Positions 8,036 to 62,460 of a stretch of 64,000 nt of DNA are shown piece after piece. The DNA lies in NCBI GenBank assembly GCA_965221695.1, contig OZ244905.1:762355-826354 (forward strand), written 5' to 3'. The notes beneath the pieces were generated by a model. That model was not told the origin of the DNA. It saw only the letters and a list, made by a program, of their open reading frames with translations, and did no database searches. Each line of letters begins with the position of its first letter. The stretch's first letter is position 1. The stretch comes from Gammaproteobacteria bacterium. Lineage in GTDB: Bacteria > Pseudomonadota > Gammaproteobacteria > Eutrophobiales > Eutrophobiaceae. The position numbers and the translations under genes are program-made.

Positions 8036-8134
8036 GTACCACTCCCGCGAAAGCGGGAGTCCAGTCAAATACTGTATCGCCCGAAGGGCGACCTCTTGAC
8101 CCACTGGATTCCCGTTTGCACGGGAATGGTACCG
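8036..8134. repeat. REP-like compound hairpin repeat, copy 1
   Basis: CTCCCGCGAAAGCGGGAGTCCAGTCAAAT + TGTATCGCCCGAAGGGCGAC + GGATTCCCGTTTGCACGGGAATGG. Near-identical modules recur at 12634-12813, 31402-31510, 36670-36838 and 62350-62460. Confidence 0.8.
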
Positions 8135-8162
8135 GGCATAGGTTACACAGCATATAGCTTGT

Positions 8163-9716
8163 ATGACAACATTCTCACTCAATGATCCTTCGGTGGTCGT
8201 GGTCATCGGTTCCGGCGCCGGCGGTGGAACAGTGTCGGAAATATTGGCGCGTAACGGCATTGATGTGGTCTGTCTTGAAGCCGGCAAGCGGCTCGACCTC
8301 ACGGAGATCGTTACCAATGAAGCCGAGATGTTCGGCAAAATCACCTGGCTGGATGAACGCCAGGGCAGCGGGGTCGCGCTGCCGCCATTCCCGGTATGGA
8401 ACTGCAAGACGGTGGGCGGCACGACCGTGCACTGGACTGCGACCGGCATCCGGCTGCAGGAACATGAGTTCAACGCGCTCAGCCGCTACGGTGCGGTCTC
8501 CGATACGTCCCTGGTGGACTGGCCGCTCAGCCTGGCGGAACTGGAACCGTATTACACCGCCGCTGAAGACCGCCTGGGCGTGACCGGCACGCACGGGATT
8601 GAACGACTGCCGGAAAGCAACAATTACAGGGTATTCAAAGCCGGCGCAAAAAAATGCGGCTACCAGGAGATCAACACCGGCAACCTGGCGATTAATTCCC
8701 GCCCGCGCGACGGCAGGGGCAGTTGCCTGCAACTGGGGTTCTGCGCCAGCGGCTGCGCAACCGGCGCCAAGTGGTCAACCCTGTATACAGATATTCCTGC
8801 GGCGGAACAGAGCGGTCATTTTGAATTACGAACGGAATCCATGGCGATAACGGTAAACCACGACCGGAACAAGGCGACCGGGGTCGACTACCTGGACAAA
8901 CACGGGCAAAAACACACCCAGTCGGCAAGGGCAGTCTGCATTGCCGGCAACACCGTGGAAACCACCAGGTTGTTGCTCAACTCCCGCTCTGATCTGTTCC
9001 CGCAGGGGCTGGCCAACGGCAGCGGTCAGGTCGGCAAAAACTACATGCGCCACGTGATGGCCAGTATCGTCGGCATCATGCCCGGGAAGGTAAACCAGCA
9101 TCGCGGCGCGCACCAGGCCGGTATTGTTTACGACGAGCGTTACCACGACAACAAACGCGGCTTTTTCGGCGGCCTGTTATTCGAAACCGTGAGTTTCACG
9201 CCGGAATCCATGGCCAGGTTCCTGCGGCCCGGAGGCTGGGGTAGCGCTTATACGGAACTGCTGGAACAATACAACCGCATGGCCGCGCTGCTGATCGTGG
9301 GTGAGGACCCTCCGATTGAAACCAATACCATCACGTTGCATCCCACGCGCAAAGACCATTATGGCCTGCCGGTGCCTGTCGTCCATTATGCGCATCACGC
9401 CAACTCCAACAGGATGCTGCGCTACGGCTTGGAACGGGGACGCAAGATCTATGAAGTCCTGGGCGCGGAGCAAACACTCGAATTGGTGAATGTGTTCCCG
9501 GCCACCCACAACATGGGCACGGCGCGCATGGGTAATGACCCGGCCACCAGCGTCTGTAACCGGTGGGGACAGACCCATGAGCTGGACAACCTGTTCATCA
9601 GCGATGGGAGCCTCTTCCCCACCTCAGGCTGCGCCAACCCAACGCTGACGATTATCGCGCTGGCGCTGCGCCAGGCCGAGTATCTGACCGCACAGCTCCG
9701 GTCAAATTCGATATAA
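8163..9716 (+). CDS. GMC-family FAD-dependent oxidoreductase (large subunit)
   Basis: 517 aa. N-terminal FAD Rossmann motif VVVIGSGAGGGTVSEILARNGIDVVCLEAG. C-terminal GMC region ending ...ANPTLTIIALALR. Confidence 0.9.
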   Translation: MTTFSLNDPSVVVVIGSGAGGGTVSEILARNGIDVVCLEAGKRLDLTEIVTNEAEMFGKITWLDERQGSGVALPPFPVWNCKTVGGTTVHWTATGIRLQEHEFNALSRYGAVSDTSLVDWPLSLAELEPYYTAAEDRLGVTGTHGIERLPESNNYRVFKAGAKKCGYQEINTGNLAINSRPRDGRGSCLQLGFCASGCATGAKWSTLYTDIPAAEQSGHFELRTESMAITVNHDRNKATGVDYLDKHGQKHTQSARAVCIAGNTVETTRLLLNSRSDLFPQGLANGSGQVGKNYMRHVMASIVGIMPGKVNQHRGAHQAGIVYDERYHDNKRGFFGGLLFETVSFTPESMARFLRPGGWGSAYTELLEQYNRMAALLIVGEDPPIETNTITLHPTRKDHYGLPVPVVHYAHHANSNRMLRYGLERGRKIYEVLGAEQTLELVNVFPATHNMGTARMGNDPATSVCNRWGQTHELDNLFISDGSLFPTSGCANPTLTIIALALRQAEYLTAQLRSNSI

Positions 9717-9820
9717 AGCTGCTTGGATACTGATGAAGAAGTATGTATTGACCATTTGGAATATACTGCCTATACTCTGGACTACATTAAGTGCTATCCA
9801 ATAACAACATGGAGGTAATC

Positions 9821-9985
9821 ATGAATTACGAATTAGTCACCATTATGGTAACTATCATTGCGACTGGCTGCGCTGTTATCGGCTTAATCCGTCCCAGCAT
9901 AACAAATTTACAAGAACGCATGTCCGGCCTGGAGCAACGCATGGCGCGCCTGGAAGGTTTGTTTGAGGGTTTTACCGGAAAGTAG
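9821..9985 (+). CDS. Small hypothetical membrane protein (one TM plus a short coiled coil)
   Basis: Internal ATG preceded by a GGAGGTAATC RBS. MNYELVTIMVTIIATGCAVIGLIRPS... 54 aa. Confidence 0.35.
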   Translation: MNYELVTIMVTIIATGCAVIGLIRPSITNLQERMSGLEQRMARLEGLFEGFTGK

Positions 9986-11297: not shown

Positions 11298-11459
11298 GCC
11301 ACCGCAGTATAAATGAAAACAGGGTGTAAATCTGCCGGACTCCCAAAGGAGGATGTTGTCTGACGCGGGCGTGACGTCTGCAATACCTGGCTGGCGCCCA
11401 GGTTTTCCAACGCAATGCTGACTAAAACCAAAGGCCGAGAGGGTATAATTCAACCAGCC

Positions 11460-12662
11460 ATGAACAGACACCTCCTTCTTGCGCTGATCGTCTCAGCCAG
11501 CGTTATTACCATGATGTCGACAGACTTGTATGCGCCGAGCCTCGCAAGTTTGCCGGTATTGCTGAACACCAGCCCGGAACTGGTCAAGCTGACGGTCAGT
11601 CTTAATCTTCTGGCTTATGGCCTCGCCACCCTTATCCACGGTCCACTGTCAGAACGCTTCGGCAGAAAGCCGGTGCTGCTATGGGGTCTGGTCGGATTTA
11701 CCCTGGCCAGTTTCCTCTGCGCAACGGCCGCCGACATCGACCAATTGCTGGCTGCGCGCGTGCTTCAGGGCATTGCCGCCGCAGTAGAAGGTGTTGTTGT
11801 GCTGGCCATCATCCGCGATGTATTTACCGAAAAGGAACAGGTCAGGGCAATTGCCGTGTACGGCATTGCCACCTCTTTTGCGCCCGCGTTTGCCCCCATG
11901 ATAGGTGGTTATATCCACGTATTATTCGGCTGGAGGATGAATTTCTACCTGCTCACAGGCCTGGCGCTGATCGTGACTGCGCTGATCACGTTGTTCCTGA
12001 AAGAATCCGCCGAAAAAGACCCCGACGCGCTGAACCTGAAAGAAATCTACGCGGATTATATTGGCCTGCTCTGCAACAGGTCATTCCTGACTTATGTCGT
12101 CATCGGCGGTTGCAGCCTGGGCTGTATCTTCGTGTTTATTACCGCAGGCCCTTTTATCCTGATTAACAACCATGGCGTGGCAACCGAGCATTTCGGTTAT
12201 TACCAGGCAGTCCTTGTGATTGCCTATATTATCGGCAGCCTATTGGCAGCCCGCATGACCCGGCGCCACAGCGCCAGGGAAATACTGCGCGTCGGGGTTT
12301 GCTTCGCAGTGTGCGGCGCCCTGTTATTGCTGGGAATCCTGGCATCTGGTTGGGAGACACCGGAAACCCTGACCCTGGCTGTTGCGGTACTGCTGTTCGC
12401 GGAAGGACCGATATTTGCCGTGGTGCCCACCCTGGCAATGGATACATCCGACCGCAGAACCGGCGCCGCAGCCGCTTTCATCGTGGCGGCAGAAATGGCT
12501 ATCGGCTCAGTTGCGGCGCTGGCGGTAAGCTGGGCCCATGACGGCACGGCATTACCGATGCTAATCACGATGCCGGCGCTGGTCGTGGTTATCGTTCTGG
12601 CATACCTGTACAGTGGGAAACTGCCTACTTATACCATTCCCGTGAAAACGGGAATCCAGTGA
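11460..12662 (+). CDS. MFS transporter (DHA1/Bcr-CflA-like drug:H+ antiporter family)
   Basis: About 12 predicted TM segments. MFS motif region GPLSERFGRKPVLLWGL. The last 8 codons (PVKTGIQ*) are encoded by a REP-like repeat. Confidence 0.85.
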   Translation: MNRHLLLALIVSASVITMMSTDLYAPSLASLPVLLNTSPELVKLTVSLNLLAYGLATLIHGPLSERFGRKPVLLWGLVGFTLASFLCATAADIDQLLAARVLQGIAAAVEGVVVLAIIRDVFTEKEQVRAIAVYGIATSFAPAFAPMIGGYIHVLFGWRMNFYLLTGLALIVTALITLFLKESAEKDPDALNLKEIYADYIGLLCNRSFLTYVVIGGCSLGCIFVFITAGPFILINNHGVATEHFGYYQAVLVIAYIIGSLLAARMTRRHSAREILRVGVCFAVCGALLLLGILASGWETPETLTLAVAVLLFAEGPIFAVVPTLAMDTSDRRTGAAAAFIVAAEMAIGSVAALAVSWAHDGTALPMLITMPALVVVIVLAYLYSGKLPTYTIPVKTGIQ

Positions 12663-12813
12663 AACTAAGAGTCGCCCTGCGGGCGACACAGTATTTGACT
12701 GGACTCCCGCTTCCGCGGGAGTGGTTCTGTGGTAGCATTCACAGGAGTGCCCCGTCCCATTCCCTTGCAAGTGCCCCCCGTCCCATTCCCGCGCAAGCGG
12801 GAATCCAGTAAGC
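12634..12813. repeat. REP-like compound hairpin repeat cluster, copy 2
   Basis: TTCCCGTGAAAACGGGAATCCAGTGAAAC, GTCGCCCTGCGGGCGACACAGTAT, CTCCCGCTTCCGCGGGAG, and repeated CCCGTCCCATTCCC units ending TTCCCGCGCAAGCGGGAATCCAGTAAGC. Confidence 0.8.
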
Positions 12814-12875
12814 AATTCTTCCTTACAAGAAGTCTCGTTGTCTGAAATATTGACGGACAATCCCAGGTTGAGCAA

Positions 12876-17363: not shown

Positions 17364-18233
17364 TCAGCGGGTCGGCATCAGGCCCATGTCGAATTGCAGG
17401 TGGCTGAACGGCACCGGGATGTTGTAGCGGGCAGCCAGGCCGGCATCGTCGGATTGTTCATAATGGCCTATCAGCGAACTCTTGGTGGCGAACACCGCGT
17501 CTGAGTCCAGATACTCGTCGCCTTCCGAAAATACGTGCGTTGTCAGCGGCTCGTAACCGTCCGCAGAGACGATGAAATGGATATGGGCCGGGCGCATGCC
17601 GTGACGGCTGCTGGTTCGCAACAAATCACCAACCGGTCCGTCAGTGGGTATGGAATAGGATAGCGGTTTTTCCGTGACAAAAGCGTAATTGCCTTGCTCA
17701 TCCGTGGTGAAGATGCCGCGCATATTGTTCTCCGGCATGGTTTGATCCTGCACATCATACGTACCGTTCGCTGCGGTTTGCCAGATGTCCAGCTTTGCTC
17801 CCGCTATGGGATTACCGTCCGGGTCAGTCACCCTGCCCTGTACCAGCGCAATATCTCCACCATAATGCCGCTTGATGATGCTGGCGCCGTTTTCGTATTC
17901 CGGCGCGCCGGGCACGTAAAACGGCCCTAACACTGTGGACTCGGTGCCCTGGCCGGACTTGGGGTGGTTGATCGCATCAACCAGCATGGATACGCCCAGC
18001 ACGTCTGACAACAGGATAAATTCCTGGCGCTTATCGTCGCAGATCTGGCCTGTAGCGGTTAGGAACATGATGGCCTTGAACCATTCCTCTTCCGTCAACT
18101 CCACATCCTTGACAAACGCATGGAGGTGTTTGAGCAACGAGGTAATGATCTGCCTGAACCTTGGATCTTCTGTCTTGGAACCGTATTCTTCCAACACGAT
18201 TTCCGTCAGATTATCGATTGTAAAATCACGCAT
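17364..18233 (-). CDS. Intradiol ring-cleavage dioxygenase (hydroxyquinol 1,2-dioxygenase / catechol 1,2-dioxygenase family)
   Basis: 289 aa. Intradiol dioxygenase motifs GPFY, the Tyr/His iron-ligand region, and RPAHIHF. GGGGAGGAAATC RBS. Confidence 0.85.
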   Translation of the reverse strand: MRDFTIDNLTEIVLEEYGSKTEDPRFRQIITSLLKHLHAFVKDVELTEEEWFKAIMFLTATGQICDDKRQEFILLSDVLGVSMLVDAINHPKSGQGTESTVLGPFYVPGAPEYENGASIIKRHYGGDIALVQGRVTDPDGNPIAGAKLDIWQTAANGTYDVQDQTMPENNMRGIFTTDEQGNYAFVTEKPLSYSIPTDGPVGDLLRTSSRHGMRPAHIHFIVSADGYEPLTTHVFSEGDEYLDSDAVFATKSSLIGHYEQSDDAGLAARYNIPVPFSHLQFDMGLMPTR

Positions 18234-18252: not shown

Positions 18253-18309
18253 ATTCACATGGATGGACAGGATATACAGGATGCTGTCATGTCTTGCATC
18301 CTGTATATC
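18253..18309. repeat. Copy 2 of the 23-bp repeat, fused to a perfect 15-bp-arm hairpin (GGATATACAGGATGC-11nt-GCATCCTGTATATCC)
   Basis: Sits between the DUF1329 stop (18320) and the dioxygenase start (18233). No U-tract follows on the transcribed strand. Confidence 0.6.
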
Positions 18310-18319
18310 CATGTTAATC

Positions 18320-19618
18320 TTAACGCCCTTTTGCGCGCAATGCCTGCACGGTGAAATCTGTTTCTTTAAATGGTTTTTCCGGCAATATCGCCTTGAACTG
18401 CAGGGTCGTGCAGTGCAGCGCCTGGATATCGATCATGGAGACCGCATCGATGATCGGCACGCCCATGCCCCGGTTGGAGGGATGATGCCGGTCCGGGTGG
18501 GAGTAGGCGGCGATGGCGACTTTCCACAGGTTGCCAGGCCTGTCGAAGATGTGGCCATAGACCGGTAACATGGTCTGGGCGTCCAGGTAATAGCGACGCT
18601 TGGACAACGGATGTTGTTTCCAGTAAGGCTCGGCCTCCAGGATATACGCCTTGCGCACGTGCCAGGTGACATTCGGAAAGCAGTTACCCTTGCCGTGGAA
18701 GCCGATGAACCTGAAACCATCGAGCTGTTGCCCCACCTCCTCCAGTTGCTGCTCGTCATGATGGAAGAACGGCAGCAGTACCCAGGTGATGCCTTTATAG
18801 GTCCACTTCTGATCCATGATGCGGCCGTTATAACCTAAAAAGTCCTCGATCATAATGTCACTGCCGAGGAATGCGTCCGTGGTCTGTCCAGACGCCAGGC
18901 GGCGCACACGCCGGTGGCCGGACAGGTACAGCCAGACCTGCTCCGGCTTGGTATCGTCTTCCAGTCGTTGTACCAGCAGTTGCGTCCCGCGCAGGTCGGG
19001 CGGCGCCAGTACTCTCAGGTACAGGCCGTGGTAGATTTCGGACGGATTTTTCGGCATCGACGGAATCGGCTCCTGCACATGCCTGTGCATAAACTTCAGC
19101 GAACTGGCATAGAAGGACAACTCTCTCTCGATTTTGTCATGCCGTATATTCCTGTATTGCCAGTAAAATCCATCCACCTCACCGCTGTCGTAAGAATAGG
19201 TATAGCGCAGGTTCCAGGCCAGCTTGTCCCCTGCCCTGGGATCGTCAAGTTGCGGCTCTCTGGGGAACGGCCGTCCCGCGATGTAATTGTGAATAATCCC
19301 CGGCGCATCGCCGAGTTCGGTTTGATCCAGGTAACGCCTCGTTGCGTCGATATACGCAGCATGCGTGGACATGGATATGACCTCGCCCGTGGTGATGGTC
19401 AAAAACTCATCACTGATCAGGTCCACCAGCTTAGGCGCCAGAATAGGGCGGAATGACTCCACATTTTCTTTTGTGATCACCGTGCCCGGCGCGGGGTTAA
19501 GCGAGGCAACATGTGCCAGGTCAAAGGTGAACGACTCCTCGACCACATCTGCCCTGAGCGCGGCGGTACCGGCCAGAAGACCAAGCAACGATACGCAGAT
19601 AAATCGTCGAGAAGTCAT
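18320..19618 (-). CDS. DUF1329-family secreted protein (paralog 1)
   Basis: 432 aa. Signal peptide. Strongly paralogous to 24278-25585 (RRLASGQTTDAFLGSDIMIEDFLGYN vs RRLATGQTTDAFLGTDIMIEDFEGYN; ALHCTTLQFKA vs AKHCTTGQFKG). Confidence 0.8.
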   Translation of the reverse strand: MTSRRFICVSLLGLLAGTAALRADVVEESFTFDLAHVASLNPAPGTVITKENVESFRPILAPKLVDLISDEFLTITTGEVISMSTHAAYIDATRRYLDQTELGDAPGIIHNYIAGRPFPREPQLDDPRAGDKLAWNLRYTYSYDSGEVDGFYWQYRNIRHDKIERELSFYASSLKFMHRHVQEPIPSMPKNPSEIYHGLYLRVLAPPDLRGTQLLVQRLEDDTKPEQVWLYLSGHRRVRRLASGQTTDAFLGSDIMIEDFLGYNGRIMDQKWTYKGITWVLLPFFHHDEQQLEEVGQQLDGFRFIGFHGKGNCFPNVTWHVRKAYILEAEPYWKQHPLSKRRYYLDAQTMLPVYGHIFDRPGNLWKVAIAAYSHPDRHHPSNRGMGVPIIDAVSMIDIQALHCTTLQFKAILPEKPFKETDFTVQALRAKGR

Positions 19619-31319: not shown

Positions 31320-31401
31320 GTTTCCCCTAAATTAACCCTCATAAACAGCGCGCTGCGCATCCTGGCCGCATGTAATTGTTGACATAATCCAAATCACGCC
31401 C

Positions 31402-36838: not shown

Positions 36839-36840
36839 TA

Positions 36841-48394: not shown

Positions 48395-48449
48395 TCCAGA
48401 GGGTGTACTGAGCGCATGCAAGTGTCGTCGTGATTAATGCTTAAATCCA

Positions 48450-48836
48450 ATGCAAACATTGCAAACAAACTCAGATATTCCGGATGACACTGCAGCGGTC
48501 ATCGAGGGTAAACACAGGACGGGTTTAACTGTTGTTCCTGACGGCTACAGGGTAAAAAAGTTGGCTGAAGTGAAAAACTATCTAAACCACAATATGGATC
48601 TGTTGGGTTTTTTATCGTCGCTGCCCGCATCTATCTCTAAATCGAAAGGCGTGGAATCCATTGACCTGGAGTTCTATCATGATATTGAGGAACATTGGGA
48701 TAAGCTGTTTGTAGTCGTCAACACTCAAATCGAAGATATGGATGAACTCGATGCCCTGGAAGACTCATTATATTCTTCTTTGTTTGAACCCAAGGATGAT
48801 ATGCTATCAGGTCGAGTGGTGCTATCCGTAGGATGA
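48450..48836 (+). CDS. Hypothetical protein (acidic C-terminus)
   Basis: 128-aa ORF with no recognised motif. The HEPN-like ORF follows 4 nt downstream. Confidence 0.4.
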   Translation: MQTLQTNSDIPDDTAAVIEGKHRTGLTVVPDGYRVKKLAEVKNYLNHNMDLLGFLSSLPASISKSKGVESIDLEFYHDIEEHWDKLFVVVNTQIEDMDELDALEDSLYSSLFEPKDDMLSGRVVLSVG

Positions 48837-48839
48837 CCT

Positions 48840-49061
48840 ATGCCGATTGAACCAAGGGACATGGTTGCGTACGCGCATGGGATGCTTAAAACAGCAGGAT
48901 CAGAAATCGAGTATAGAAACGTTGTAAATCGCGCCTATTATGGGGCTTTTATCACCGCCAGAGACTTTGCAGAAATTACTACCGATAGCGGGAGCGTACA
49001 TCGTGAAGTCGTTGAGCACTACCGCGTCGATGTAGTTACTCATGTGGCGGGTGGCGCGTAA
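48840..49061 (+). CDS. Small HEPN-like protein (possible HepT-type toxin domain); conflicts with an antisense ORF
   Basis: 73 aa. RAYYGAFITARDF resembles the HEPN helix. C-terminal R-x4-H-x-Y (VHREVVEHYRVD) resembles the HEPN RX4-6H nuclease motif. AGGATGA RBS. Overlaps the minus-strand ORF 48900-49163 by 162 bp. Confidence 0.3.
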   Translation: MPIEPRDMVAYAHGMLKTAGSEIEYRNVVNRAYYGAFITARDFAEITTDSGSVHREVVEHYRVDVVTHVAGGA

Positions 49062-49163
49062 CAGCTTGTCTATCTCTTTATCGGTCCTGGCCTGTGAAAT
49101 AGCAAGTTTATCCAAGGAAGCCGATATGTCCGCCAAGGACCGGAGAGTTTTTTCTTCATTCAT
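48900..49163 (-). CDS. Alternative small hypothetical ORF antisense to the HEPN-like ORF
   Basis: 87 aa. Strong AAAGGAG RBS 8 nt upstream of the ATG. No motif recognised. It is mutually exclusive with the plus-strand HEPN-like ORF over 162 bp. Confidence 0.3.
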   Translation of the reverse strand: MNEEKTLRSLADISASLDKLAISQARTDKEIDKLLRATRHMSNYIDAVVLNDFTMYAPAIGSNFCKVSGGDKSPIIGAIYNVSILDF

Positions 49164-49616
49164 GATGAGATCTCCTTTCTGGGATAACCGGAATAATCAG
49201 GATCGAGGCACACACCCAACGGCGTGTCCGGCAGTATTGTCGCATGTTCCCGGTGCAATGAATATGTGAAAGGCTCGGTATGTGTGCCCCAGGTCGGAAT
49301 GCAGTATAATCAACTTTCCTTGATATTTTGTCAGCCCGCACAAATTACAATACAAATATGAAACAGGCTGATTTCAAACAACCGGCCCAACGAATTTATC
49401 GCGCCCGGCAAACAGAAGGTGTGGAATGCAGACTGGAGTTCCACAGGCAGGATAGATCGTTCCGGTTCATCGACTCACTGTGCTGGTAGGATAGACGAAG
49501 CGCCAGAGGCAGGATGATTCGGGTGGAATTTATAGCGGTAGATACGACTGCTGACCCTGAGAGTGCAGGCAATAAAGTCAAGCGCCTCCGTAGTGCCGCA
49601 ATCAAGTAACAAGCAT

Positions 49617-51164
49617 ATGGCAAAGCCAGAAAAAAACAAAGGCGCTCATCTCGGGTTCGAGTCGAAGCTCTGGGCGACCGCGGACAAGTTGCGCGGCAAC
49701 ATGGAACCGTCCGACTACAAGCATGTCGCTCTCGGCCTGATCTTCCTCAAGTACATCTCGGACGCTTTCGAAGCAAAGCGAAGCGAGTTGCTAAAGAACA
49801 AGAATGCCGATGCCGAGGATCCGCTGGAATATCTCGCCTATAACCTCTTCTGGGTTCCTAAGGCAGCTCGCTGGTCGCGTCTGCAGGCCAGAGCCAAGCA
49901 GACGACGATTGGCAAAGACATCGACGATGCCATGCTAGCCATTGAAGCCAGCAATACCTCGCTCAAGGGCGTCCTGCCGAAAGATTACGCCCGACCGGCG
50001 CTCAATAAGGTCATGCTCGGCGAACTGATCGACCTGGTGAGCGGCATCGGCATGGCCGAAGAGGCGGACCGCTCCCGCGACATACTCGGGCGGGTGTACG
50101 AGTACTTCCTCGGCGGCTTTGCCGGGGCGGAAGGCAAGCGAGGCGGCGAGTTCTACACGCCCCGCTCCGTCGTCCGGCTACTGGTCGAAATGCTGGAGCC
50201 TTACAAGGGCCGCGTCTATGACCCCTGCTGCGGTTCCGGCGGCATGTTCGTGCAGTCAGAGCGTTTCGTCGAGGAACACGGCGGACGCGTAGGCGACATT
50301 GCTATCTACGGCCAGGAAAGCAACTACACGACCTGGCGTCTCGCCAAGATGAACCTTGCGGTGCGCGGTATCGACGCCGATATCCGCTGGAACAATGAAG
50401 GCAGCTTCCACAAAGACGAACTACCGGACCTCAAGGCCGACTTCATCCTGGCCAATCCACCCTTCAATGTCTCCGATTGGGGTGGCGACCGGCTACGCGA
50501 CGATGTCCGCTGGACGTTCGGCGTGCCACCGGTAGGCAACGCCAACTACGCCTGGCTCCAGCACATCCACCATCACCTTGCACCCAATGGATCAGCAGGG
50601 GTGGTACTCGCTAACGGTTCCATGTCCACCACAACGTCAGGTGAAGGAGACATCCGTCGCGCCATGGTCGAAGCCGATGCGGTGGATTGTATGATCGCAC
50701 TGCCGGGACAGCTCTTCTATTCGACACAGATCCCCGCTTGCCTCTGGTTCCTCGCTCGCAACAAGAATCCTGGCCAAGGTCAACGTGACCGGCGCGGCGA
50801 GGTGCTGTTCATCGACGCCCGCAAGGTCGGGCACATGGTCGACCGGACCCGTAAGGAGTTTTCTGACGAGGATATCGCACGGATCGCAGATTGCTACCAT
50901 ACCTGGCGCGGAGAACCCGACATGGCCCTATATGAAGATGAACCGGGCTTTTGCAAGTCCGCCACGCTGGAGGAGATTACGAAACACGGCCACGTTCTGA
51001 CACCCGGCCGCTATGTTGGTGCTGCGGCAATCAAAGATGATGACGTGCCATTTGAGGAGCGGTTCGCGGAGTTAAAGGAGACGCTGGCTGAGCAATTCAC
51101 CGAGTCCCGAAACCTGACCAAGATCATTCAGAATAAACTGGACGAAATCGGTACTCATGAATAG
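49617..51164 (+). CDS. hsdM: Type I restriction-modification system DNA methyltransferase subunit HsdM
   Basis: N-terminal [38 protein letters not shown] motif. N6-adenine MTase catalytic motif NPPFN ([12 protein letters not shown]). Preferred start is the ATG at 49617. Confidence 0.9.
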
Positions 51165-52449
51165 ATGGTCCATACTTTCATTGCGGGACGTCGGTGTCGA
51201 GTTGATTGACTGTCTACACAAGACACCCGCAGCACAAACGGAGGGATATCCATACGTAGGTATTCCTCAGATGAGGGACGGATGGATAGACTTTGGCAGC
51301 GCTCGAAAGATATCACATGACGACTTTGTCGAATGGACGACGAAGGCAATGCCTCAACAACACGACGTAATTCTCTCGCGGCGTACAAATCCTGGGGTAA
51401 CGGCCATTGACAGGACAGGCACTGAATTCGCGCTCGGTCAGAATCTCGTCTTACTTCGCGCAGATGGCATCCAAATCGATCCACCATTTTTGAAATGGCT
51501 CGTACGCTCGCCTGCTTGGTGGCAGCAGGTTGAAAAATTCATGAACGTTGGCGCTGTATTCAACAGCTTGAGGTGTGCTGATGTGCCTAACTTCGAGCTC
51601 CCAGTTCCGCCCTTCGAGACTCAACGGCGAATGGGAAACTTGCTTGATGTCCTTGAAAGCGCAATTGACATGAATCGTCGAATGAACGAAACACTGGAGG
51701 CGATGGCTCGGGCAATCTTCAAGGACTGGTTCGTCGATTTCGGCCCCACGCGTGCCAAGGCTGAAGGGCGCGCTCCCTACCTCGCCCCCGACATCTGGGA
51801 TCTGTTCCCTGACGCACTGGACGACGAGGGCAAGCCGGTTGGATGGGATTGGTCAAAAATCGCGTCGATGGCGAGCACTAAGCTAGGAGGTACTCCTTCG
51901 CGCAAGAAACCCGAATTGTGGGGTGGCAGTGTGCCTTGGATAAACTCGGGAAAGGTCAATCAGCTCCGTGTGATATCCCCCAGCGAATTCATCACAACTG
52001 AAGGATTAGAGAATTCCTCGGCTAAGCTACTGCCCAAGAGAACGACTCTAATTGCCATTACTGGCGCCACTTTAGGCCAAGTTAGTCTTAGCGAGTGTGA
52101 GACTAGCACCAATCAATCTGTGGTTGGCATAGTCGGCAATGATCGAATGCTGAATGAGTTTCTATATTGTTGGATAAGAGAAAATATTGGCGAGCTTCTT
52201 GCGTTACAGACAGGTGCCGCTCAACAACACATCAACAAGGGCAATGTTGACCAATTAGCGGTTCTGTCTCCAGCCGCGGAAGTATTGAACTCTTGGGTTA
52301 GTCTGTCACGGCCGCTCTTTGACTTGATTGCGTTGAATTGCTTCGAAAGTGAAACCCTATCCGTAACTCGCGACCTTCTCCTTCCAAAACTCATGTCCGG
52401 CGAAATCCGTCTTCGGGATGCCGAAAGGGCTGTTGAGGCCGTGGCATGA
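51157..52449 (+). CDS. hsdS: Type I restriction-modification specificity subunit HsdS
   Basis: 430 aa. Two target-recognition-domain halves with conserved spacer helices. Overlaps hsdM by 8 nt. Confidence 0.8.
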
Positions 52450-53594
52450 TCCGCGTCCCCGTCAACCCCGATCTTCTGCGCTGGGCCCGCGAGCGCGCCA
52501 GAGTCACGCAGGATGACCTGACCGTTAAGTTCAAGAAGCTGCCCAGTTGGGAGGACGGAGAGGCGCAACCTACTCTCAAGCAATTGGAAAAGTTCGCTCG
52601 CGCCGTCCATGTGCCATTCGGTTACCTTTTTCTCACAGAGCCTCCCGAGGAACCTCTCCCGATTTCGGATTTTCGTACGGTCACGGATACTGCAACCGCC
52701 AGACCAAGTCCGGATTTGCTCGACACACTCTACGCCATGCAGCGGCGGCAGGCGTGGTTACGCGAATACCTCGTTGAGAACGACGCGGAGCCGCTGACAT
52801 TCGTGGCTAGCGCCCGACTTGCTGACGACCCAAGCGTCGTAGGTCGTGAAATGCGGCGCACCCTTGGTCTTGAAGAGGGTTGGGCCGAGGGAGTCACCAC
52901 TTGGCAAGATGCCGTGAATGAACTACGCCGCATGATCGAAGGGCTAGGCGTAATGGCCGTGATCAATGGCGTGGTCGGCAACAATACGCACCGTCGGTTG
53001 AGTGTGGCGGAGTTTCGCGGGTTCGCGCTCTCGGATCGCTACGCGCCCCTGCTCTTCGTGAATGGTGCGGATGCGAAGTCCGCCCAAATGTTCACACTGG
53101 CTCACGAACTGGCGCACATCTGGCTCGGTGAAGCGGGGATTTCCAATTTCGAGAACCTCCTTCCCGGCGGCATGAAGGTGGAAGATTGGTGCAACCAGGC
53201 AGCGGCCGAATTCCTCGTACCTTCGGGAGAGTTGCGGGAGCGATGGATTGAGGTGAGACGGGGACAGAATCCCTTCGAGGACCTTGCACGCTCGTTCAAG
53301 GTGAGCCCCGTGGTCGCCGCCCGTCGAGCTATGGACCTCAATCTCCTTGAGCGTAACGCCTTTTTCGATTTCTATCAGCGCTACTTCAACCAGGAACGCA
53401 GGCCTGGCAAGACATCGTCCGGAGGCGATTTCTACAACAACCAAAATGCGCGCGTCGGTAAGCTTTTCGCAACCTGTGTGATGAGAGCGGCTCTGGAAGG
53501 TCAAATCGGATTCAGAGTGGCTTACGAATTGACCGGTCTCCGGGGCGGAACATTTCAGGATTACGCCGGGCGATTGGGCATCAGGCTCCCGTGA
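52446..53594 (+). CDS. XRE-family HTH + ImmA/IrrE-family Zn-metallopeptidase (COG2856-like)
   Basis: 382 aa. N-terminal HTH region. Zinc-peptidase HExxH motif in FTLAHELAHIWLGE. 4-nt overlap with hsdS. Confidence 0.75.
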   Translation: MIRVPVNPDLLRWARERARVTQDDLTVKFKKLPSWEDGEAQPTLKQLEKFARAVHVPFGYLFLTEPPEEPLPISDFRTVTDTATARPSPDLLDTLYAMQRRQAWLREYLVENDAEPLTFVASARLADDPSVVGREMRRTLGLEEGWAEGVTTWQDAVNELRRMIEGLGVMAVINGVVGNNTHRRLSVAEFRGFALSDRYAPLLFVNGADAKSAQMFTLAHELAHIWLGEAGISNFENLLPGGMKVEDWCNQAAAEFLVPSGELRERWIEVRRGQNPFEDLARSFKVSPVVAARRAMDLNLLERNAFFDFYQRYFNQERRPGKTSSGGDFYNNQNARVGKLFATCVMRAALEGQIGFRVAYELTGLRGGTFQDYAGRLGIRLP

Positions 53595-54112
53595 TGGCAG
53601 ATCGACTCTATCTTGTAGACTCCGATGTCCTGATTACGGCGAAGAACCTTTACTATGCTTTCGATATTTGCCCGGGTTTTTGGAAGTGCTTGATTCAACG
53701 GCACCGGGAGGGTCTTGTTTTCAGCGTCGACCGGGTACGCAACGAACTGCTGGCAGGTCGCGAAACAGAGGAGCTTGTTCGCTGGGTCAGGAACGAAGTT
53801 CCGGAGGGTTTTTTCCTGGCTATGGATTCCGATGAGGTAGCTCGCGTCTATACGGAAATCATGTTGTGGGTACAGCGGCATCCGAATTACTTTGACCAGG
53901 CTAAGGCGCAATTCGCAACAAGCGCCGATGGCTGGCTCGTCGCATGCGCACAGGTGCGAAGTGCAACGGTTGTGACGAATGAGCAGCCTTCCCCGGAGTC
54001 CAGGAAAGTCGTAAAGCTGCCGGATGTCTGCGACAAGTTCAATGTTCCTTGGAGGAATACCTTTGAGATGCTTCGAGCGTTAGGGGCGCAGTTCGATTTG
54101 GAGAAGAGTTAG
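53591..54112 (+). CDS. DUF4411-family (PIN-like fold) protein, partner of the XRE/ImmA protein
   Basis: 173 aa. N-terminal LYLVDSDVLITAKNLYY (PIN-like acidic start). 4-nt overlap with the upstream gene. Confidence 0.65.
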   Translation: MMADRLYLVDSDVLITAKNLYYAFDICPGFWKCLIQRHREGLVFSVDRVRNELLAGRETEELVRWVRNEVPEGFFLAMDSDEVARVYTEIMLWVQRHPNYFDQAKAQFATSADGWLVACAQVRSATVVTNEQPSPESRKVVKLPDVCDKFNVPWRNTFEMLRALGAQFDLEKS

Positions 54113-54249
54113 ATGGCTGATGCCAGAGGCTGGAGAATCAAGATTCCGAATGCCTGCATCATGCTCGGCCTACGCTGCATGAACCCCGACGAGATGCTCC
54201 ATCGCGAGTGCGCAAGATTTATCCTGGGGACGAGAAGAGACACGGCCTG

Positions 54250-57525
<3,276 letters not shown>

Positions 57526-57573
57526 CCTCAAAGACCTTCGAGATACAGGTTCAGGACTATCTGGATAGGAACT

Positions 57574-57831
57574 TCACGAGGTTTCCCGAGTGAATATCCC
57601 CTCATGTATTTCCTCTTCGGCCACTGAGCGGTAGGCGTAGAGCAGGCAGGCGTGAATGTCCTCCGGTTCCAGGATAGGATATTCACTTAAGATCGTATCC
57701 ACTGTGTCTCCTGCGGCAAGTTTTGCCAGGACATGTTCTACAGCGAATCGCATGCCGCGAATAATCGGTTTACCACCGAAGATGTCGGGGCGAACAGAGA
57801 TACGGTTGAGTAGTTCGGTCTCTTGAGTCAT
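57574..57831 (-). CDS. DUF433-family small protein (antitoxin-like); no cognate PIN/DUF5615 partner in the window
   Basis: 85 aa. ISVRPDIFGGKPIIRGMRFAVEHVL matches the DUF433 signature. Confidence 0.65.
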   Translation of the reverse strand: MTQETELLNRISVRPDIFGGKPIIRGMRFAVEHVLAKLAAGDTVDTILSEYPILEPEDIHACLLYAYRSVAEEEIHEGIFTRETS

Positions 57832-57879
57832 GGTTACCTCCCTCGGTCGTATTCTCTCGTTCCTTTATTATTGCCATTA

Positions 57880-57911
57880 TAATGCACAAATTTTGCAAAA
57901 TTTGTGCATTA
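57880..57911. promoter_or_regulatory. Perfect 32-bp palindrome TAATGCACAAATTTTGCAAAATTTGTGCATTA abutting a TATAAT box, upstream of the DUF433 gene
   Basis: The reverse complement is identical. TATAAT lies immediately adjacent and is oriented for minus-strand transcription. Located 49-80 bp upstream of the DUF433 start codon. Confidence 0.6.
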
Positions 57912-57976
57912 CAAGCTTTCCTGTAACCAACTTCCCGTTCTTACGGCAGATGCCGATGGGGAGGCGGAAGAAGTCC

Positions 57977-59131
57977 CTAGAATGAATCCTCACCCCCGAT
58001 ATAGCCCTTGATGGGTACCCCGGACAGGGGTTCGCCGCCGTCTTTGCCTACCCGGTAGGTTTCCTGGAAGTACAGTGAGTGGGTGCGTTCCTGGTTCATG
58101 AAGTGCGGGTGCATTGAGCAGACCATGTTCTCCGGCAGTACGAAGTCAAAGCCCTCGCCTATCCTGGGCATTTCGATCATGGTCATGCCGATGGAGTGGC
58201 CGCAAACATGGCCTGAGCGGTAGCCGCGGTCGAAGATCGGCTTCATGCAGGCGTTGCTGGCTGCCTCGGCGGTGTTGCCGGCCTTCATATGCTCTTTGGC
58301 AAGTTCATGGAACTCCTGGTAAGCGGTCATCATTTCTGCGGTAGTCGCATCCATGCCTTGGGGGAACACGGGGCGGGAGAATTCGACCCAGTGGCCGCCC
58401 TCGCCGGAGACCTCGAGCCCGTACATCATACCGTCGCTGTCCTGTATGGGCCGTTGGGTGGGAAACACCATCTGCGGTTCCAGGGAGCCGTTGGGTCCCA
58501 TCTGTATCATGTCCATGGTGTTGCGGGCGCAACCGGCCGCGGCAAAAGTATTCTCGGCAATGCCCATCAGTTCCGCTTCCGTTTTGCCCGGCCCGTAGGC
58601 GCGGATCACATCCAGCACACCTTGCTTGTTGATCTCCATCGAATGGCGCACCGACGCGATTTCCTCCTCGCTCTTCTGCGCGCGGGCATAGTCGAACTGG
58701 ATTTCAAAATCGATAATCTCGAAGTCTTTTGCCGCCAGCGCGGAATAATCACGCACGTTGATGATGTATTGCAGGCCGTAGATGCCCAGCCGTTTCACCC
58801 CACTGCCCTGCAGAAACTCCGCCATCCACTCGCCGCAATGGGGGGGGAACTCGCGTTGTTCTATGAAGGTCGCGGTATGATCGCCCACCCAGGTCGCTTC
58901 CCGAGGAAATACGCACACGGGGTCGCCGTCGGCGGGGATAACCACGTACGCATAGCGGTGCAGGATCAGGAACCCGCACAGGTAACGCACTGCGCCCTCG
59001 AACCCGGTATATTCGCTGCCGCTGACCACCAGCGCGTCCAGTCCTTCTTTTTCCATAGCCGCGCGCACGTTCGCGTAACGGCGCTCTATCTCGGCCTGGC
59101 TGGGGCGAAAACGGTTAATATAATCAGTCAT
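57977..59131 (-). CDS. M24-family metallohydrolase (creatinase / Xaa-Pro peptidase-like)
   Basis: 384 aa. N-terminal creatinase-like domain. C-terminal pita-bread fold with metal-ligand His/Glu pattern (…HGLGH-like GHSIGM…E…). Confidence 0.75.
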   Translation of the reverse strand: MTDYINRFRPSQAEIERRYANVRAAMEKEGLDALVVSGSEYTGFEGAVRYLCGFLILHRYAYVVIPADGDPVCVFPREATWVGDHTATFIEQREFPPHCGEWMAEFLQGSGVKRLGIYGLQYIINVRDYSALAAKDFEIIDFEIQFDYARAQKSEEEIASVRHSMEINKQGVLDVIRAYGPGKTEAELMGIAENTFAAAGCARNTMDMIQMGPNGSLEPQMVFPTQRPIQDSDGMMYGLEVSGEGGHWVEFSRPVFPQGMDATTAEMMTAYQEFHELAKEHMKAGNTAEAASNACMKPIFDRGYRSGHVCGHSIGMTMIEMPRIGEGFDFVLPENMVCSMHPHFMNQERTHSLYFQETYRVGKDGGEPLSGVPIKGYIGGEDSF

Positions 59132-60161: not shown

Positions 60162-61118
60162 TTACCCATGACTGTAACTGCTTTCATACGCCTTGACCAA
60201 GCGGTACAAGGTCTCATGGTACGGCGCCGGAATACCAGCCTTGTGCGCCTCACGCACGATGGAACCCGTGATCCAGTCTATCTCCGTTGCGCGCTTGTTG
60301 CGCACGTCATCAAGCATTGAGGGAATATGGGCATAGTCCTCGCCGCTGGTCGTGCCCTGGTTAACCGCTCTGACGTTCATTGCCCAGGGGTCATCCGCCA
60401 GGGTCACGCCGCGTGCTTCTGCGATAGATTTGGCCTCACCCATCATCGCGTAGACCAGATGACCCAGATCCTCCAGTCTGTCCTGCGCCGCAAAGGCCTT
60501 CGCATGAGGCAGGTCTGTCAACGCTGAGATGCTGTTCACCGCGGAGTTGAAGATCAGCTTGGACCACTGGTGCGGCAGCAGGTCTTCGTAGGCCTCCGCC
60601 TTCAGTCCGGAACGAACAAACAGTTCCTCAACCTGTTTCACGAAATCAAACGTCGCGCTGCCCTGCGCCCAAGGCCCCATCCAGGTGGCCGTATCCAACT
60701 CATATTCGACATGCGTATCCGTATGGCGGGTACCGCTCATAAAGGTCACGCCGGATATGATGGGCCAGTCACCAAAGCGGCTTACCATTTCCTCGCAACC
60801 AAGGCCGTTCTGGATCATCAACACGTGGGCGCTGGTGAAATGGCCCTCAATCATCCGACTACAGTCTTCCACGGCAAGCGCCTTGGACGCAATGATTACC
60901 AGGTCAACATCGCCCAGTTCTGCCGCGTGCGCCGACGCGCGCACGTTTGCGTGCAGTTCGGATTTGCCGCTGACCCGCAGGCCCTCGGCATTCAACGCCT
61001 GCGCGTGCTCCTTGCGCCGCGTCAGTACCGCCATGTCCACGATAGCGCCCAGGTGCCCCACCAGCAAGCTGCCGATGGCGCCGGCGCCGACAACGCAAAC
61101 CTTTTCGATTTCTTTCAT
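60162..61118 (-). CDS. 2-dehydropantoate 2-reductase (PanE/ApbA)-family oxidoreductase, second paralog
   Basis: 318 aa. N-terminal motif KVCVVGAGAIGSLLVGHLGA. Confidence 0.75.
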   Translation of the reverse strand: MKEIEKVCVVGAGAIGSLLVGHLGAIVDMAVLTRRKEHAQALNAEGLRVSGKSELHANVRASAHAAELGDVDLVIIASKALAVEDCSRMIEGHFTSAHVLMIQNGLGCEEMVSRFGDWPIISGVTFMSGTRHTDTHVEYELDTATWMGPWAQGSATFDFVKQVEELFVRSGLKAEAYEDLLPHQWSKLIFNSAVNSISALTDLPHAKAFAAQDRLEDLGHLVYAMMGEAKSIAEARGVTLADDPWAMNVRAVNQGTTSGEDYAHIPSMLDDVRNKRATEIDWITGSIVREAHKAGIPAPYHETLYRLVKAYESSYSHG

Positions 61119-62314
61119 ACAACCCGGCCGACGATGTCCTTGAATTCCTCGTCGGTGACCAGGCGCGCATTTCGGACGCCGAGTTCCTTGACTTCTGCAA
61201 GGACTCCGGCGCGCTTGTCTTCCGGTATATTCAACCCCAGCTCCTCACCCTTGAGCTTGATGTTGGACAGCCCACTCTTCTTGCCCAGCACGATGCGGCG
61301 TTCGGCGTCCACGATCTCGGAAGAATACGGCTCAATGGCCTGGGGGATATGGAACTGGTTCGCGACTGCGCCGCTCTCGCGGGTGTAGAGAAATTCGCCG
61401 ACCACGGGTTTCCAGCCATCCACGCTGTAGCCACCCGCCTGTTGCACCACTTTCGAGGTCTCCCTGGCTTGGGCCAGATCCAGCTCCACCGGCATGTCGT
61501 ACAGGCATTGCAAGGCCAGGGCCACTTCGCAGATGTCCGCATTGCCGGCGCGCTCGCCCATGCCGTTGATCGTGCCTTGGATCCAGCGGGCGCCGCCGCG
61601 CACGGCCGCCACTGCGCTTGCGGTGGCAAGACCGAAATCATTATGGCCGTGCCAGTGGATGGGGATGTCAGGCCCGACCCAACTGCTGACCTCGCCGATC
61701 AATCGTTCCACCGCTTCAGGTGAACAGACACCGATAGTATCCACCACGGACACCTCATCGGCGCCCTGCTCAATGGCCGTCGAATACACGTCGCGCAGGA
61801 ACCCCAGGTCGCTGCGCGTGGAGTCCACGGCAAAGAAGTTCACGGTTTTTATGCCGTTGTCCTTCGCATGCCTGATGGCATCGGTAACGCGCTGCAGGAC
61901 GACGTCCCGGGTGAAACCGTATGCCTTGATCTTCATATCGCTGGTCGAAATTTCAATCAGCACATGTTCCGTGCCCAATTCAATATGGGCGTCGATATCC
62001 GCCTTGACGGCGCGGGAAAACCCCCAGATTTCAGAGCGCAGTCCCGCATCCAGGATGCGTTTCACCGCCTTGGTATCGTCCTCGGAGACCCGGGGAAACC
62101 CCGATTCAATCCGAGCCACGCCCAGGTCGCTGAGTTTGCAGGCGATAGTAAATTTTTCCTCGGGGGTGAAGCAAACGCCAACGGATTGCTCGCCGTCGCG
62201 CAAGGTCGTGTCGTAAAAACGCACGGGTGTGGAGCGGTCGAAGCGGGAAAGAATGTCATCGCTGCGGTTCAACTCGCTGGTCCAGATCTTGTCCTGTGCA
62301 ATGCTTGTGTTCAT
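61115..62314 (-). CDS. HMGL-like DRE-TIM metallolyase (isopropylmalate / homocitrate / citramalate-synthase-like aldolase family)
   Basis: 399 aa. YDTTLRDGEQS at the N-terminus. HxH metal site (IHWHGHNDFGLATA). Confidence 0.75.
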   Translation of the reverse strand: MNTSIAQDKIWTSELNRSDDILSRFDRSTPVRFYDTTLRDGEQSVGVCFTPEEKFTIACKLSDLGVARIESGFPRVSEDDTKAVKRILDAGLRSEIWGFSRAVKADIDAHIELGTEHVLIEISTSDMKIKAYGFTRDVVLQRVTDAIRHAKDNGIKTVNFFAVDSTRSDLGFLRDVYSTAIEQGADEVSVVDTIGVCSPEAVERLIGEVSSWVGPDIPIHWHGHNDFGLATASAVAAVRGGARWIQGTINGMGERAGNADICEVALALQCLYDMPVELDLAQARETSKVVQQAGGYSVDGWKPVVGEFLYTRESGAVANQFHIPQAIEPYSSEIVDAERRIVLGKKSGLSNIKLKGEELGLNIPEDKRAGVLAEVKELGVRNARLVTDEEFKDIVGRVV

Positions 62315-62349
62315 CGTAATTTACTCATAATAGTTATACAATTTTATCG

Positions 62350-62460
62350 GGATTCCAGTTGACAATAATACTCCTTATAAGGAAGGTCTGCTTACTGGAT
62401 TCCCGTTTTCACGGGAATGGTACGGAGGGCGCCATGAACGGAGCCACAGTACCACTCCTT
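62350..62460. repeat. REP-like hairpin repeat, copy 5
   Basis: ACTGGATTCCCGTTTTCACGGGAATGGTAC matches the module at 8101-8134. Confidence 0.7.

Follow-up and report, generated by a model that had tools for sequence, protein, structure and literature searches.

Compound hairpin repeats resembling the dRS3/NTS class in a gammaproteobacterial genome

Hairpin A and its relation to dRS3 and NTS

Analysis of a 64,000-nucleotide stretch of the gammaproteobacterial contig OZ244905.1 (hereafter the window) revealed a family of compound hairpin repeats at five intergenic sites. Its core unit, hairpin A, appears from the matches described below to be a lineage-specific 5'-flank variant of a known and widespread hairpin class, that of the dRS3 and NTS repeats of Neisseria and of the Ssn-related motif (SRM). 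New features are: (i) the altered 5' flank; (ii) an obligatory heterotypic doublet, which joins one hairpin closed by a T·A pair to one closed by a C·G pair; (iii) a second hairpin, B; (iv) a composite element abutting stop codons. The repeats are probably DNA-level hairpins of the dRS3/NTS class, arranged in mosaics similar to REPINs, BIMEs and NIMEs and recognised as extruded single-stranded DNA (ssDNA) hairpins by an enzyme encoded elsewhere.

Hairpin A spans 29 nt, (G)TACCA-YTCCCGY-N4-RCGGGAR-TCCAGT, and is present in ten clean copies. These are distributed over sites that an earlier reading of the letters alone (the sequence-only reading) had placed at 8036-8134, 12634-12813, 31402-31510, 36670-36838 and 62350-62460, correctly within ~10 nt. 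The core YTCCCGY-N4-RCGGGAR has 14 matches in the window at two or fewer mismatches against 3.8 expected, a number reached in none of 100 shuffles. At one mismatch or fewer, pattern search gives ten matches, all inside the five sites (8042, 8109, 12637, 12704, 12786, 31458, 36672, 36738, 36787 and 62400). A repeat finder returned a direct family (D1) with 57-nt copies at 8037-8093, 12632-12688, 31453-31509 and 36782-36838, an inverted family (I1) in which 8034-8131 is the reverse complement of 12632-12729 over 98 nt (88%), and a second inverted family (I8) in which the 29 nt of 62394-62422 are 100% complementary to 12632-12660. The recurrence of compound hairpin modules at five sites is borne out, the repeat finder and the pattern search giving the same families. 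The pair described as nearly identical over ~50 nt is also real (8037-8093 and 31453-31509, 95% over 57 nt), although the interval first given for its second member was ~10 nt off.

The family extends beyond the window. An exact-pattern scan of public genomes, with one genome per species, gave at least 85 matching 8-kb blocks among the matches listed. At least 64 of them come from a single metagenome-assembled genome (MAG), CBDCSC01 (‘Gammaproteobacteria bacterium’, ~3.5 Mb, six contigs), and the remaining blocks listed come mainly from the gammaproteobacterial MAGs JAPOQU01, JAPPLI01, VYCZ01, OZ220696, OZ244846, CBDBDW01 and CBDCTH01. Contig_6 of CBDCSC01 is 96-98% identical to the window over three overlapping blocks and belongs to a close relative with a different genome. 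The bin-name series of two matching MAGs, APA_bin and SB0675_bin, occur in sponge-symbiont papers, and an association of the lineage with sponges is likely. The repeat finder, pattern counts, public-genome matches and doublet geometry together support a genome-wide, modular hairpin family resembling repetitive extragenic palindromes (REPs), for which the label ‘modular and compound’ is accurate. A search of the whole window against Rfam at the gathering threshold gave no match, and a literature search with the literal stem-loop string gave incidental matches only.

The affiliation with the dRS3/NTS class is suggested by both the palindrome and its flanks. The 20-nt dRS3 palindrome ATTCCC-N8-GGGAAT occurs exactly five times in the window, where none is expected, and always within a T·A-type hairpin. 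The 28-nt NTS, CGTCATTCCCGCGMAVGCGGGAATCYRG, was defined in 2025 together with SsnA, a 94-aa single-domain GIY-YIG protein that binds and cuts it (Nat Commun 2025, PMC11893778). The window copies 12781-12808 and 36782-36809 agree with it at 25 of 28 positions, and all three mismatches fall in the 5' flank. The copy at 12785-12805 is one base from the Neisseria master REPIN 21-mer ATTCCCGCGCAGGCGGGAATC, which occurs 241 times in N. meningitidis 2594 and has been attributed, by genomic association, to the Group-2 REP-associated transposase (RAYT) NMAA_0235 (Bertels and Rainey). Some 24 contiguous identical bases, including non-palindromic flank, are hard to obtain through a generic constraint on hairpins, and thus point to common descent or to recognition by the same protein family.

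Of 164 oriented copies in the window and the related MAG, 155 have the 3' flank TCCAGT, which includes the C right after the palindrome. The 5' flank of these 164 copies reads TACCA 83 times, TCCCA 39 times and AACCA 14 times; CGTCA does not occur. A metagenome scan in which the 5' flank was left free gave at least 120 loci; nearly all of those listed are canonical NTS, with the flank GTCA in 142 of 157 copies and xCCA in none. The published SRM motif fails on all ten window copies and, once its leading HGTC is omitted, matches every one; it has six matches in 741 kb of symbiont DNA versus 159 in 686 kb of the metagenome loci. As a result of the changed 5' flank, the published NTS and SRM search patterns miss the copies of this lineage. 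In the described system, the C after the palindrome is critical for SsnA binding and the three upstream bases for cleavage; the enzyme cuts NTS in ssDNA alone, strand-specifically, and the RNA form is neither bound nor cut (PMC11893778).

Doublets, composite elements and gene context

The hairpin subtypes have been characterized in 227 copies of hairpin A, collected by relaxed matching from the window and the public blocks. The hairpin has a 7-8 bp stem, a tetraloop and fixed unpaired flanks; the stem is closed by T..A in 121 copies and by C..G in 104, and two are mismatched. The C·G copies of the window (five of ten) carry the compensated form ACTCCC-N8-GGGAGT, and other compensated variants (CCCGT/ACGGG, CCCAC/GTGGG, TGCCC/GGGCA and CCCCC/GGGGG) are present in symbiont or metagenome copies. 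Since the copies stem from few masters, the variant counts show that the stem is maintained, not how many independent compensatory events took place.

The basic unit is a REPIN-like inverted doublet, A-37 nt-A', in which the inner spacer, modally 37 nt and almost invariant, holds hairpin B (GTCGCCC-N4-GGCGAC). The two halves are of different type in 65 of 73 convergent pairs, which consist of one T-type and one C-type hairpin. Divergent neighbours lie 29-30 nt apart, and this outer spacer gives arrays a period of 124 nt. Two tandem arrays with a 124-125-nt period have been found in contig_2 of CBDCSC01: six doublets in block L027 (6362-7076), with one copy of the stop-codon-side arm just before the array, and 6.5 units in block L019 (5527-6305). 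Assembly from short reads may collapse such arrays or join them wrongly. Both the outer spacer and the half copies (31404-31452 and 12750-12780) derive from the 5' half of hairpin A. CRISPR arrays were rejected by reasoning, the 124-nt units being near-identical throughout and devoid of variable spacers, as were integron attC sites, the flanking genes being ordinary operon genes and a core-site match being absent.

An alignment of 26 isolated doublets with their flanks indicates that most isolated doublets are embedded in an element of ~200 nt. Its two conserved arms are unrelated in sequence: ~35 nt with TTTGCTGTGTAAATTTTACTAACTGACCTRCGCCCCG on the T-type side and ~70 nt with GGAGGAATGCCCTGGCCTGTGCCAACAGTTACATGC..GTGCAGAGCCCTGATCATGAGGGT on the C-type side. 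Covariation in the element alignment is minimal (covariation term -0.62 kcal/mol), and no arm structure is supported. The ~200-nt element was considered as a miniature inverted-repeat transposable element (MITE) and rejected: its arms are unrelated, it has no terminal inverted repeats, and the sole filled/empty pair gives a 3-nt ambiguity and no target-site duplication. A second subfamily is built from two T-type hairpins around a CTCCTTATAAGGAG palindrome, with terminal inverted repeats of ~24 nt (TTCAAYCTGRTATTGCCGGATAAC), and by these features appears to be a MITE-like shell around the same hairpin. It prevails in other gammaproteobacterial MAGs (L040 7009-7100, L044 2822-2914, L062 6564-6656, L079 33-124 and L082 from 2529) and has left remnants in the window at 12816-12871 and 62348-62422. 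The modules of the five window sites are as follows.

Site 1
7968-8170: full composite element, the window's example of the ~200-nt element
7968-8036 (+): right arm, consensus ACCCTCATGATCAGG..CTGCAC...GGCACAGGCCAGGGCATTCCTCC (alignment of the 26 isolated doublets with flanks; fuzzy search, 25 arms)
7976-7978: stop codon TGA inside the right arm, end of the open reading frame (ORF) 7487-7978
8037-8065 (+): hairpin A, C·G type, TACCACTCCCGCGAAAGCGGGAGTCCAGT (DNA fold -9.8 kcal/mol, z -6.0)
8076-8092 (no strand): hairpin B, ATCGCCC-GAAG-GGCGAC, in the 37-nt inner spacer
8103-8131 (-): hairpin A, T·A type, with an exact dRS3 palindrome at 8108-8127
8133-8170 (+): degenerate left arm (family consensus, reverse complement: ..GGTCAGTTAGTAAAATTTACACAGCAAA), overlapping the start of the GMC oxidoreductase gene (8163)
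Site 2
12632-12660 (+): hairpin A, T·A type, read through by the MFS gene (TGA 12660-12662)
12671-12687 (no strand): hairpin B, GTCGCCC-TGC-GGGCGAC, followed on the minus strand by TCTTAGTTTC; flagged terminator-like
12698-12726 (-): hairpin A, C·G type, closing the doublet 12632-12726 (fold -29.5 kcal/mol, z -7.2)
12750-12809 (+): half-hairpin direct repeat, then a third hairpin A (12781-12809, T·A type)
12816-12871 (+): second-subfamily remnant, hairpin B2 TTCTTCCTTACAAGAAG and an end like a terminal inverted repeat, ATTGACGGACAATCCCAGGTTGA (repeat family I2, complementary to 62361-62430)
Site 3
31332-31403 (+): right-arm-like module, adjoining the start of gene 30330-31319 with no stop codon there, an atypical orientation
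31404-31452 (+): two tandem half-copies of hairpin A (5' half only), conserved in the relative
31453-31508 (+): hairpin A, C·G type (31453-31481), and hairpin B (31492-31508), 95% identical to 8037-8093
Site 4
36667-36760 (+): doublet (repeat families D4 and I5) of degenerate hairpin A (36667-36695), hairpin B (36703-36723) and inverted C·G hairpin A (36732-36760)
36782-36834 (+): hairpin A, T·A type (36782-36810), and a short B variant (36821-36834)
Site 5
62348-62385 (+): second-subfamily remnant, 3' half of hairpin A CGGGATTCCAGT and B2 hairpin CTCCTTATAAGGAAG (repeat family I2)
62394-62422 (-): hairpin A, T·A type, 100% complementary to 12632-12660
62449-62466 (+): half-copy of hairpin A, GTACCACTCCTTCGAATG

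Sites 2 and 4 thus contain three hairpins A each. As ssDNA, the doublet is predicted to fold on either strand into three hairpins (A, B and A') at -28 to -29.5 kcal/mol (z -6.2 to -7.3), with predicted flank stems formed by an outer GTACCA/TGGTAC pair and an inner TCCAGT/ACTGGA pair; for a lone hairpin A the prediction is -9.8 kcal/mol (z -6.0). As RNA, the site-1 transcript is predicted to prefer one long stem (-88.8 kcal/mol, z -5.0).

All five sites follow a gene, and the placement between convergent or tandem genes described by the sequence-only reading was confirmed: site 2 separates a convergent pair, site 1 a tandem pair (+ +) and sites 3-5 tandem pairs (- -). Two genes of the window end within a family module. 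ORF 11415-12662 encodes an MFS transporter (Pfam MFS_1, E 6e-53), and its stop codon, TGA 12660-12662, sits in the conserved flank, TCCAGTGAAAC, of the hairpin at 12632-12660; this gene had already been recognized as stopping inside a repeat copy, which supplies nine codons and the stop, however, and not eight codons. The second, found in addition, is ORF 7487-7978 (TGA 7976-7978), a small subunit with a twin-arginine (Tat) signal (the motif read by eye) that precedes the GMC oxidoreductase gene. As regards gene annotation, at least two window genes have a stop codon created or displaced by the elements, which also yield spurious ORFs.

The same proximity to stop codons is seen across the family. 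In 12 of 25 C-type-side arms the adjacent outer three bases read TTA, TCA or CTA, a stop codon in reverse complement, against an expected frequency of 3/64 (binomial P ~3e-10), and the remaining neighbours are mostly one-base variants of TAA. Open frames of at least 99 codons end between -12 and +7 nt from the arm in at least 10 of the 25 copies, and the stop lies inside the arm in three (L017, L042 and window site 1). Such placement could result from insertion after (C/T)TAA-like targets with purifying selection sparing gene ends, or it could reflect a function tied to translation termination. In tandem-gene contexts, nine of ten doublets share one orientation relative to transcription, a count to be taken with caution in view of a crude home-made gene caller, which proved unreliable in the context census (ORFs run through repeats, and 18 of 84 clusters were called ‘inside genes’).

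The sequence-only reading had proposed that the repeats act as terminators or stabilisers of transcript 3' ends. The site-1 transcript does fold strongly, but hairpin A has a T-tract on neither strand and was never flagged terminator-like. Hairpin B is followed in one orientation, usually the one facing the upstream gene, by CCTTTGTTTC, with 5.2 T per 10 nt versus 3.1 in the other, and the terminator-like flag was given to one copy (12687-12671, minus strand). The arrangement of an intrinsic terminator, a G+C-rich stem directly followed by a U-tract, was not found for hairpin B, whose tail CCTTTGTTTC starts with CC and gives a partial resemblance at best. Moreover, full elements are located inside operons, for example between the genes for the Tat-signal small subunit and the GMC oxidoreductase or, in the relative, where the stop-to-start spacer of the window is 14 nt; as these genes are tightly coupled, any termination must be leaky. 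A terminator role is consequently unsupported for hairpin A and weak for hairpin B.

Comparison with the relative provides examples of turnover. In its genome, a 197-nt full element occupies exactly the interval from one gene's stop codon to the ribosome-binding site of the following gene, whereas the window counterpart is an empty 14-nt spacer (59131/59146), with a junction ambiguity of three bases only. According to this filled/empty pair and the flank consensus, the inserted element apparently follows a (C/T)TAA-like sequence immediately, and a clear target duplication is not seen. Two additional 50-nt units are present in the relative at site 4, directly upstream of 36782-36834, while site 3 is identical in both genomes. 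At 18270-18310 the window has an unrelated hairpin where CBDCSC01 has a full ~200-nt hairpin-A element. The element family is, or recently was, dynamic. The unrelated hairpin, situated between genes 17364-18233 and 18320-19618, has a perfect 15-bp stem, GGATATACAGGATGC-N11-GCATCCTGTATATCC.

Candidate partner enzymes and alternative explanations

Genes for SsnA are framed by such motifs across phyla; among genomes carrying over 200 motifs, 81% encode a homologue, with an enrichment of animal and plant symbionts (PMC11893778). The metagenome loci independently reproduce this NTS-ssnA-NTS association for canonical NTS. A seed search of the at least 120 loci gave six intact ssnA-like ORFs of ~96 aa:

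L096 259-546: framed by inverted canonical NTS hairpins; Pfam GIY-YIG (PF01541), E 8e-16
L109 130-417: framed by inverted canonical NTS hairpins; Pfam GIY-YIG (PF01541), E 1e-13
L119 2317-2742: a single hairpin copy found, ~175 nt downstream
L162 1150-1566: hairpin copies on both sides, other arrangement
L169 1321-1656: hairpin copies on both sides, other arrangement
L179 4350-4736: framed by inverted canonical NTS hairpins

L109 and L096 were the two ORFs submitted to Pfam, and in the three framed loci the hairpins are 304-307 nt apart. A hidden Markov model (HMM) built from the six ORFs detected no ssnA-like gene either in the window or among the symbiont loci L001-L085, where the ORFs between closely spaced hairpins are housekeeping genes only (MsrB, MobA-like, TatABC, AmtB and S18). 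Viral contigs gave no match either to hairpin A alone or to the pattern of a framed ssnA (hairpin, ~300 nt, inverted hairpin).

The search for a RAYT was conducted in the same DNA. With E. coli RayT (from NC_000913) as query, tblastn over the window and the at least 85 loci (~740 kb) returned a spurious GreA match only, and an HMM of 120 homologues, narrow in that it comprises close enterobacterial sequences of Group 2 only, found none. Applied to the metagenome loci, this HMM detected no intact RAYT and one 32-residue fragment with an HUH motif, in locus L178. This Y1-transposase fragment (1361-1609, minus strand; ..VVMPNHIHMIISL..) lies between three NTS copies (1226, 1323 and 1575), adjoins a gene for an RpoD-like sigma factor, and may be a decayed RAYT formerly tied to the same hairpin. 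As only a subset of the related genome is covered, the failure to find either partner is weak evidence. An Ssn-type GIY-YIG nuclease is tentatively proposed as the partner, at somewhat less than an even chance; that the partner is something else, or an enzyme now lost, is a lesser possibility, and a RAYT in this role is more doubtful still.

In the favoured explanation, which we hold to be probable, hairpin A would extrude from DNA that is single-stranded in the course of replication or uptake, and would be bound by a hairpin-specific enzyme encoded elsewhere in the genome. The likeliest enzyme would be a small Ssn-family GIY-YIG nuclease whose cleavage specificity is adapted to the changed 5' flank, the alternative being a Group-2 RAYT. 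Its action, together with recombination or slippage between copies, would lead to spread, turnover and the growth of arrays. Effects on genes would be secondary: the elements would supply stop codons, place structured RNA between the genes of an operon and perhaps cause some weak termination at hairpin B.

Several points weigh against this explanation. The partner is inferred, since the searches of the window and of ~680 kb of related symbiont DNA found neither an ssnA-like nor a RAYT gene. The three bases 5' of the palindrome, which are key for cleavage by SsnA, are ACC or CCC and not GTC. None of the ten window copies matches the SRM. The Ssn nucleases are not known to have any transposition chemistry. 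Finally, the preference of the arm for the position directly after a stop codon (the 12 of 25 given above) and the possible orientation bias relative to transcription are to be considered; a stop-codon preference is unpredicted by a purely selfish DNA model, and could instead point to a role at the level of RNA or translation.

A classical REPIN-RAYT system, in which the doublets are non-autonomous and copied by a single-copy Group-2 RAYT outside the window, as proposed for Neisseria, is unlikely, though several observations agree with it. An inverted doublet with a short spacer is the defining REPIN trait (73 convergent pairs, mode 37 nt), the elements are polymorphic between near-identical genomes, and the HUH fragment of L178 stands among NTS copies. 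The one-base difference between a window copy and the Neisseria master ATTCCCGCGCAGGCGGGAATC, with its assigned RAYT, provides a literature link for the mobiliser suggested by the sequence-only reading; in Neisseria, REPIN decay correlates with RAYT frameshifts (Bertels and Rainey). On the other hand, the ~740 kb of repeat-bearing DNA (the window and the at least 85 blocks) yielded no RAYT, and the at least 120 metagenome loci no intact one, which is weak evidence given a narrow HMM and partial sampling. The genes framed by hairpins in the metagenome encode GIY-YIG proteins, with six intact copies versus one HUH fragment. A conserved tetranucleotide of the GTAG type is reportedly found 5' of the REP palindrome, as described by Nunvar in 2010 and Ton-Hoang in 2012; the 5' box of the present family is GTAC-CA, not GTAG.

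It is still less likely that the hairpins are RNA-level elements, selected for mRNA 3'-end stability, for termination or attenuation, or for modulation of translation termination near stops. The position of all five window sites downstream of a gene, the arms abutting stops together with the long ORFs ending close to them, the strong predicted fold of the site-1 transcript and the co-orientation of nine of ten tandem-context doublets (crude gene caller), with hairpin B then followed by CCTTTGTTTC in that orientation, are consistent with such a function. REPs of E. coli within 15 nt of a stop codon are said to modulate translation termination, in work of Liang, Rudd and Deutscher from 2015. Against it, hairpin A lacks a U-tract on both strands; doublets and arrays present any transcript with both orientations; elements separate genes of one operon, a position in which a genuine terminator would have polar effects; Rfam gives no match; and site 3 is oppositely oriented. 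Across phyla the unpaired flanks agree base for base, a pattern that suits recognition by a protein rather than generic RNA stability, and SsnA, the enzyme known for this hairpin, does not bind RNA. Least probable of all is a new non-autonomous class of single-strand transposon, in which the hairpins with the TACCA flank would be the substrate of a re-targeted Ssn-type nuclease or of an unlinked enzyme mobilising the element, the ~200-nt element would insert without duplication directly after stop-codon-like (C/T)TAA sites, and the obligatory heterotypic doublet would prevent collapse into one long stem.

Neighbouring features and comparison with known systems

Several other features of the window have been recorded. 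A variable defence island at 45900-57980 carries a complete type I restriction-modification system (HsdM, HsdS and HsdR), with an M78 peptidase/DUF4411 pair inserted between HsdS and HsdR (ORFs 46145-48394, 48450-48836, 49563-51164, 51157-52449, 52446-53594, 53591-54112 and 54208-57525). Upstream of the restriction genes are a low-GC (39%) ORF of 749 aa and an ORF of 128 aa, neither with a Pfam match, and a HicB-like antitoxin is encoded at 45286-45735. The relative (block L072) has different and shorter content at the island, window positions 45935-48411 and 48873-57977 being without counterpart. An AT-rich motif, AATATCGATATTTTTT, is found in intergenic positions at 4463-4506, 27816-27835 and 38199-38242, with a tandem duplicate at 38199-38237 (repeat families D9 and D14). 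This motif, which may be an operator or promoter element, has no relation to the hairpins. The paralogous genes 18320-19618 (432 aa) and 24278-25585 (435 aa) share DNA stretches ~71-79% identical at a constant offset of 5952 nt (D3, D18 and D20), which indicates a probable duplication of a gene or operon segment.

The results extend the dRS3/NTS class, linked in 2025 to the first known sequence-specific ssDNA nucleases (Nat Commun 2025, PMC11893778), to a gammaproteobacterial lineage that is uncultured and probably lives in association with sponges. A cognate Ssn, if there is one, would be a natural enzyme of new ssDNA-cutting specificity, the property that makes the family useful as a tool. 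The regular doublets and arrays, the turnover at 97% identity and the stop-adjacent placement also make the family a clean case in which to ask how repeats of this type spread, and whether a RAYT or an Ssn is responsible.

The present repeats share with the IS200/IS605-derived PATEs and other non-autonomous ssDNA transposons dissimilar ends, the lack of terminal inverted repeats, hairpins internal to an element of ~200 nt and, judging from the one filled/empty pair and the flank consensus, an apparent insertion after a (C/T)TAA-like site without clear duplication. In contrast to PATEs, the hairpins are located 35-70 nt from the ends and are not subterminal, and no TnpA or TnpB gene was found near the elements.

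With the BIMEs of E. coli and the NIMEs of Neisseria the family has in common two subtypes alternating in orientation, with spacers alternating between 37 and 29-30 nt, tandem arrays of six or more doublets, and the joining of the same hairpin to varied intervening modules. It is unrelated in sequence to the E. coli REP, and, unlike those of BIMEs and NIMEs, its arrays are flanked by a conserved arm abutting stop codons. The function of BIMEs is defined by the binding of IHF, gyrase or Pol I; the present family is likened to them by sequence architecture alone.

The REP/REPIN-RAYT systems of Pseudomonas, E. coli and Neisseria are similar in their short extragenic palindrome of tens to hundreds of copies, in an inverted doublet able to fold as a long hairpin and in presence/absence polymorphism between strains. 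The differences relate to the 5' box, (G)TAC-CA in place of GTAG, to the two halves of the doublet, which here are systematically of different subtypes, and to the RAYT, not found in the sampled DNA of the window lineage.

The greatest correspondence is with dRS3, NTS and SRM. There are differences from these as well: the 5' flank is T(A/C)CC and not the canonical CGTC in all 164 oriented copies; roughly every second copy has the compensated C·G stem, which is obligatorily paired with the T·A variant; hairpin B and the conserved arms of ~35 and ~70 nt are added; and no ssnA gene was found in the lineage, in the window and the at least 85 loci listed. The shared features are the stem CCCGCG..GCGGG with GNRA-like loops, the oriented 3' flank TC(C/T)(A/G)G with its critical C, hundreds of copies in a host-associated bacterium, and the inverted doublets, which are common among the canonical NTS copies of the metagenomes too.

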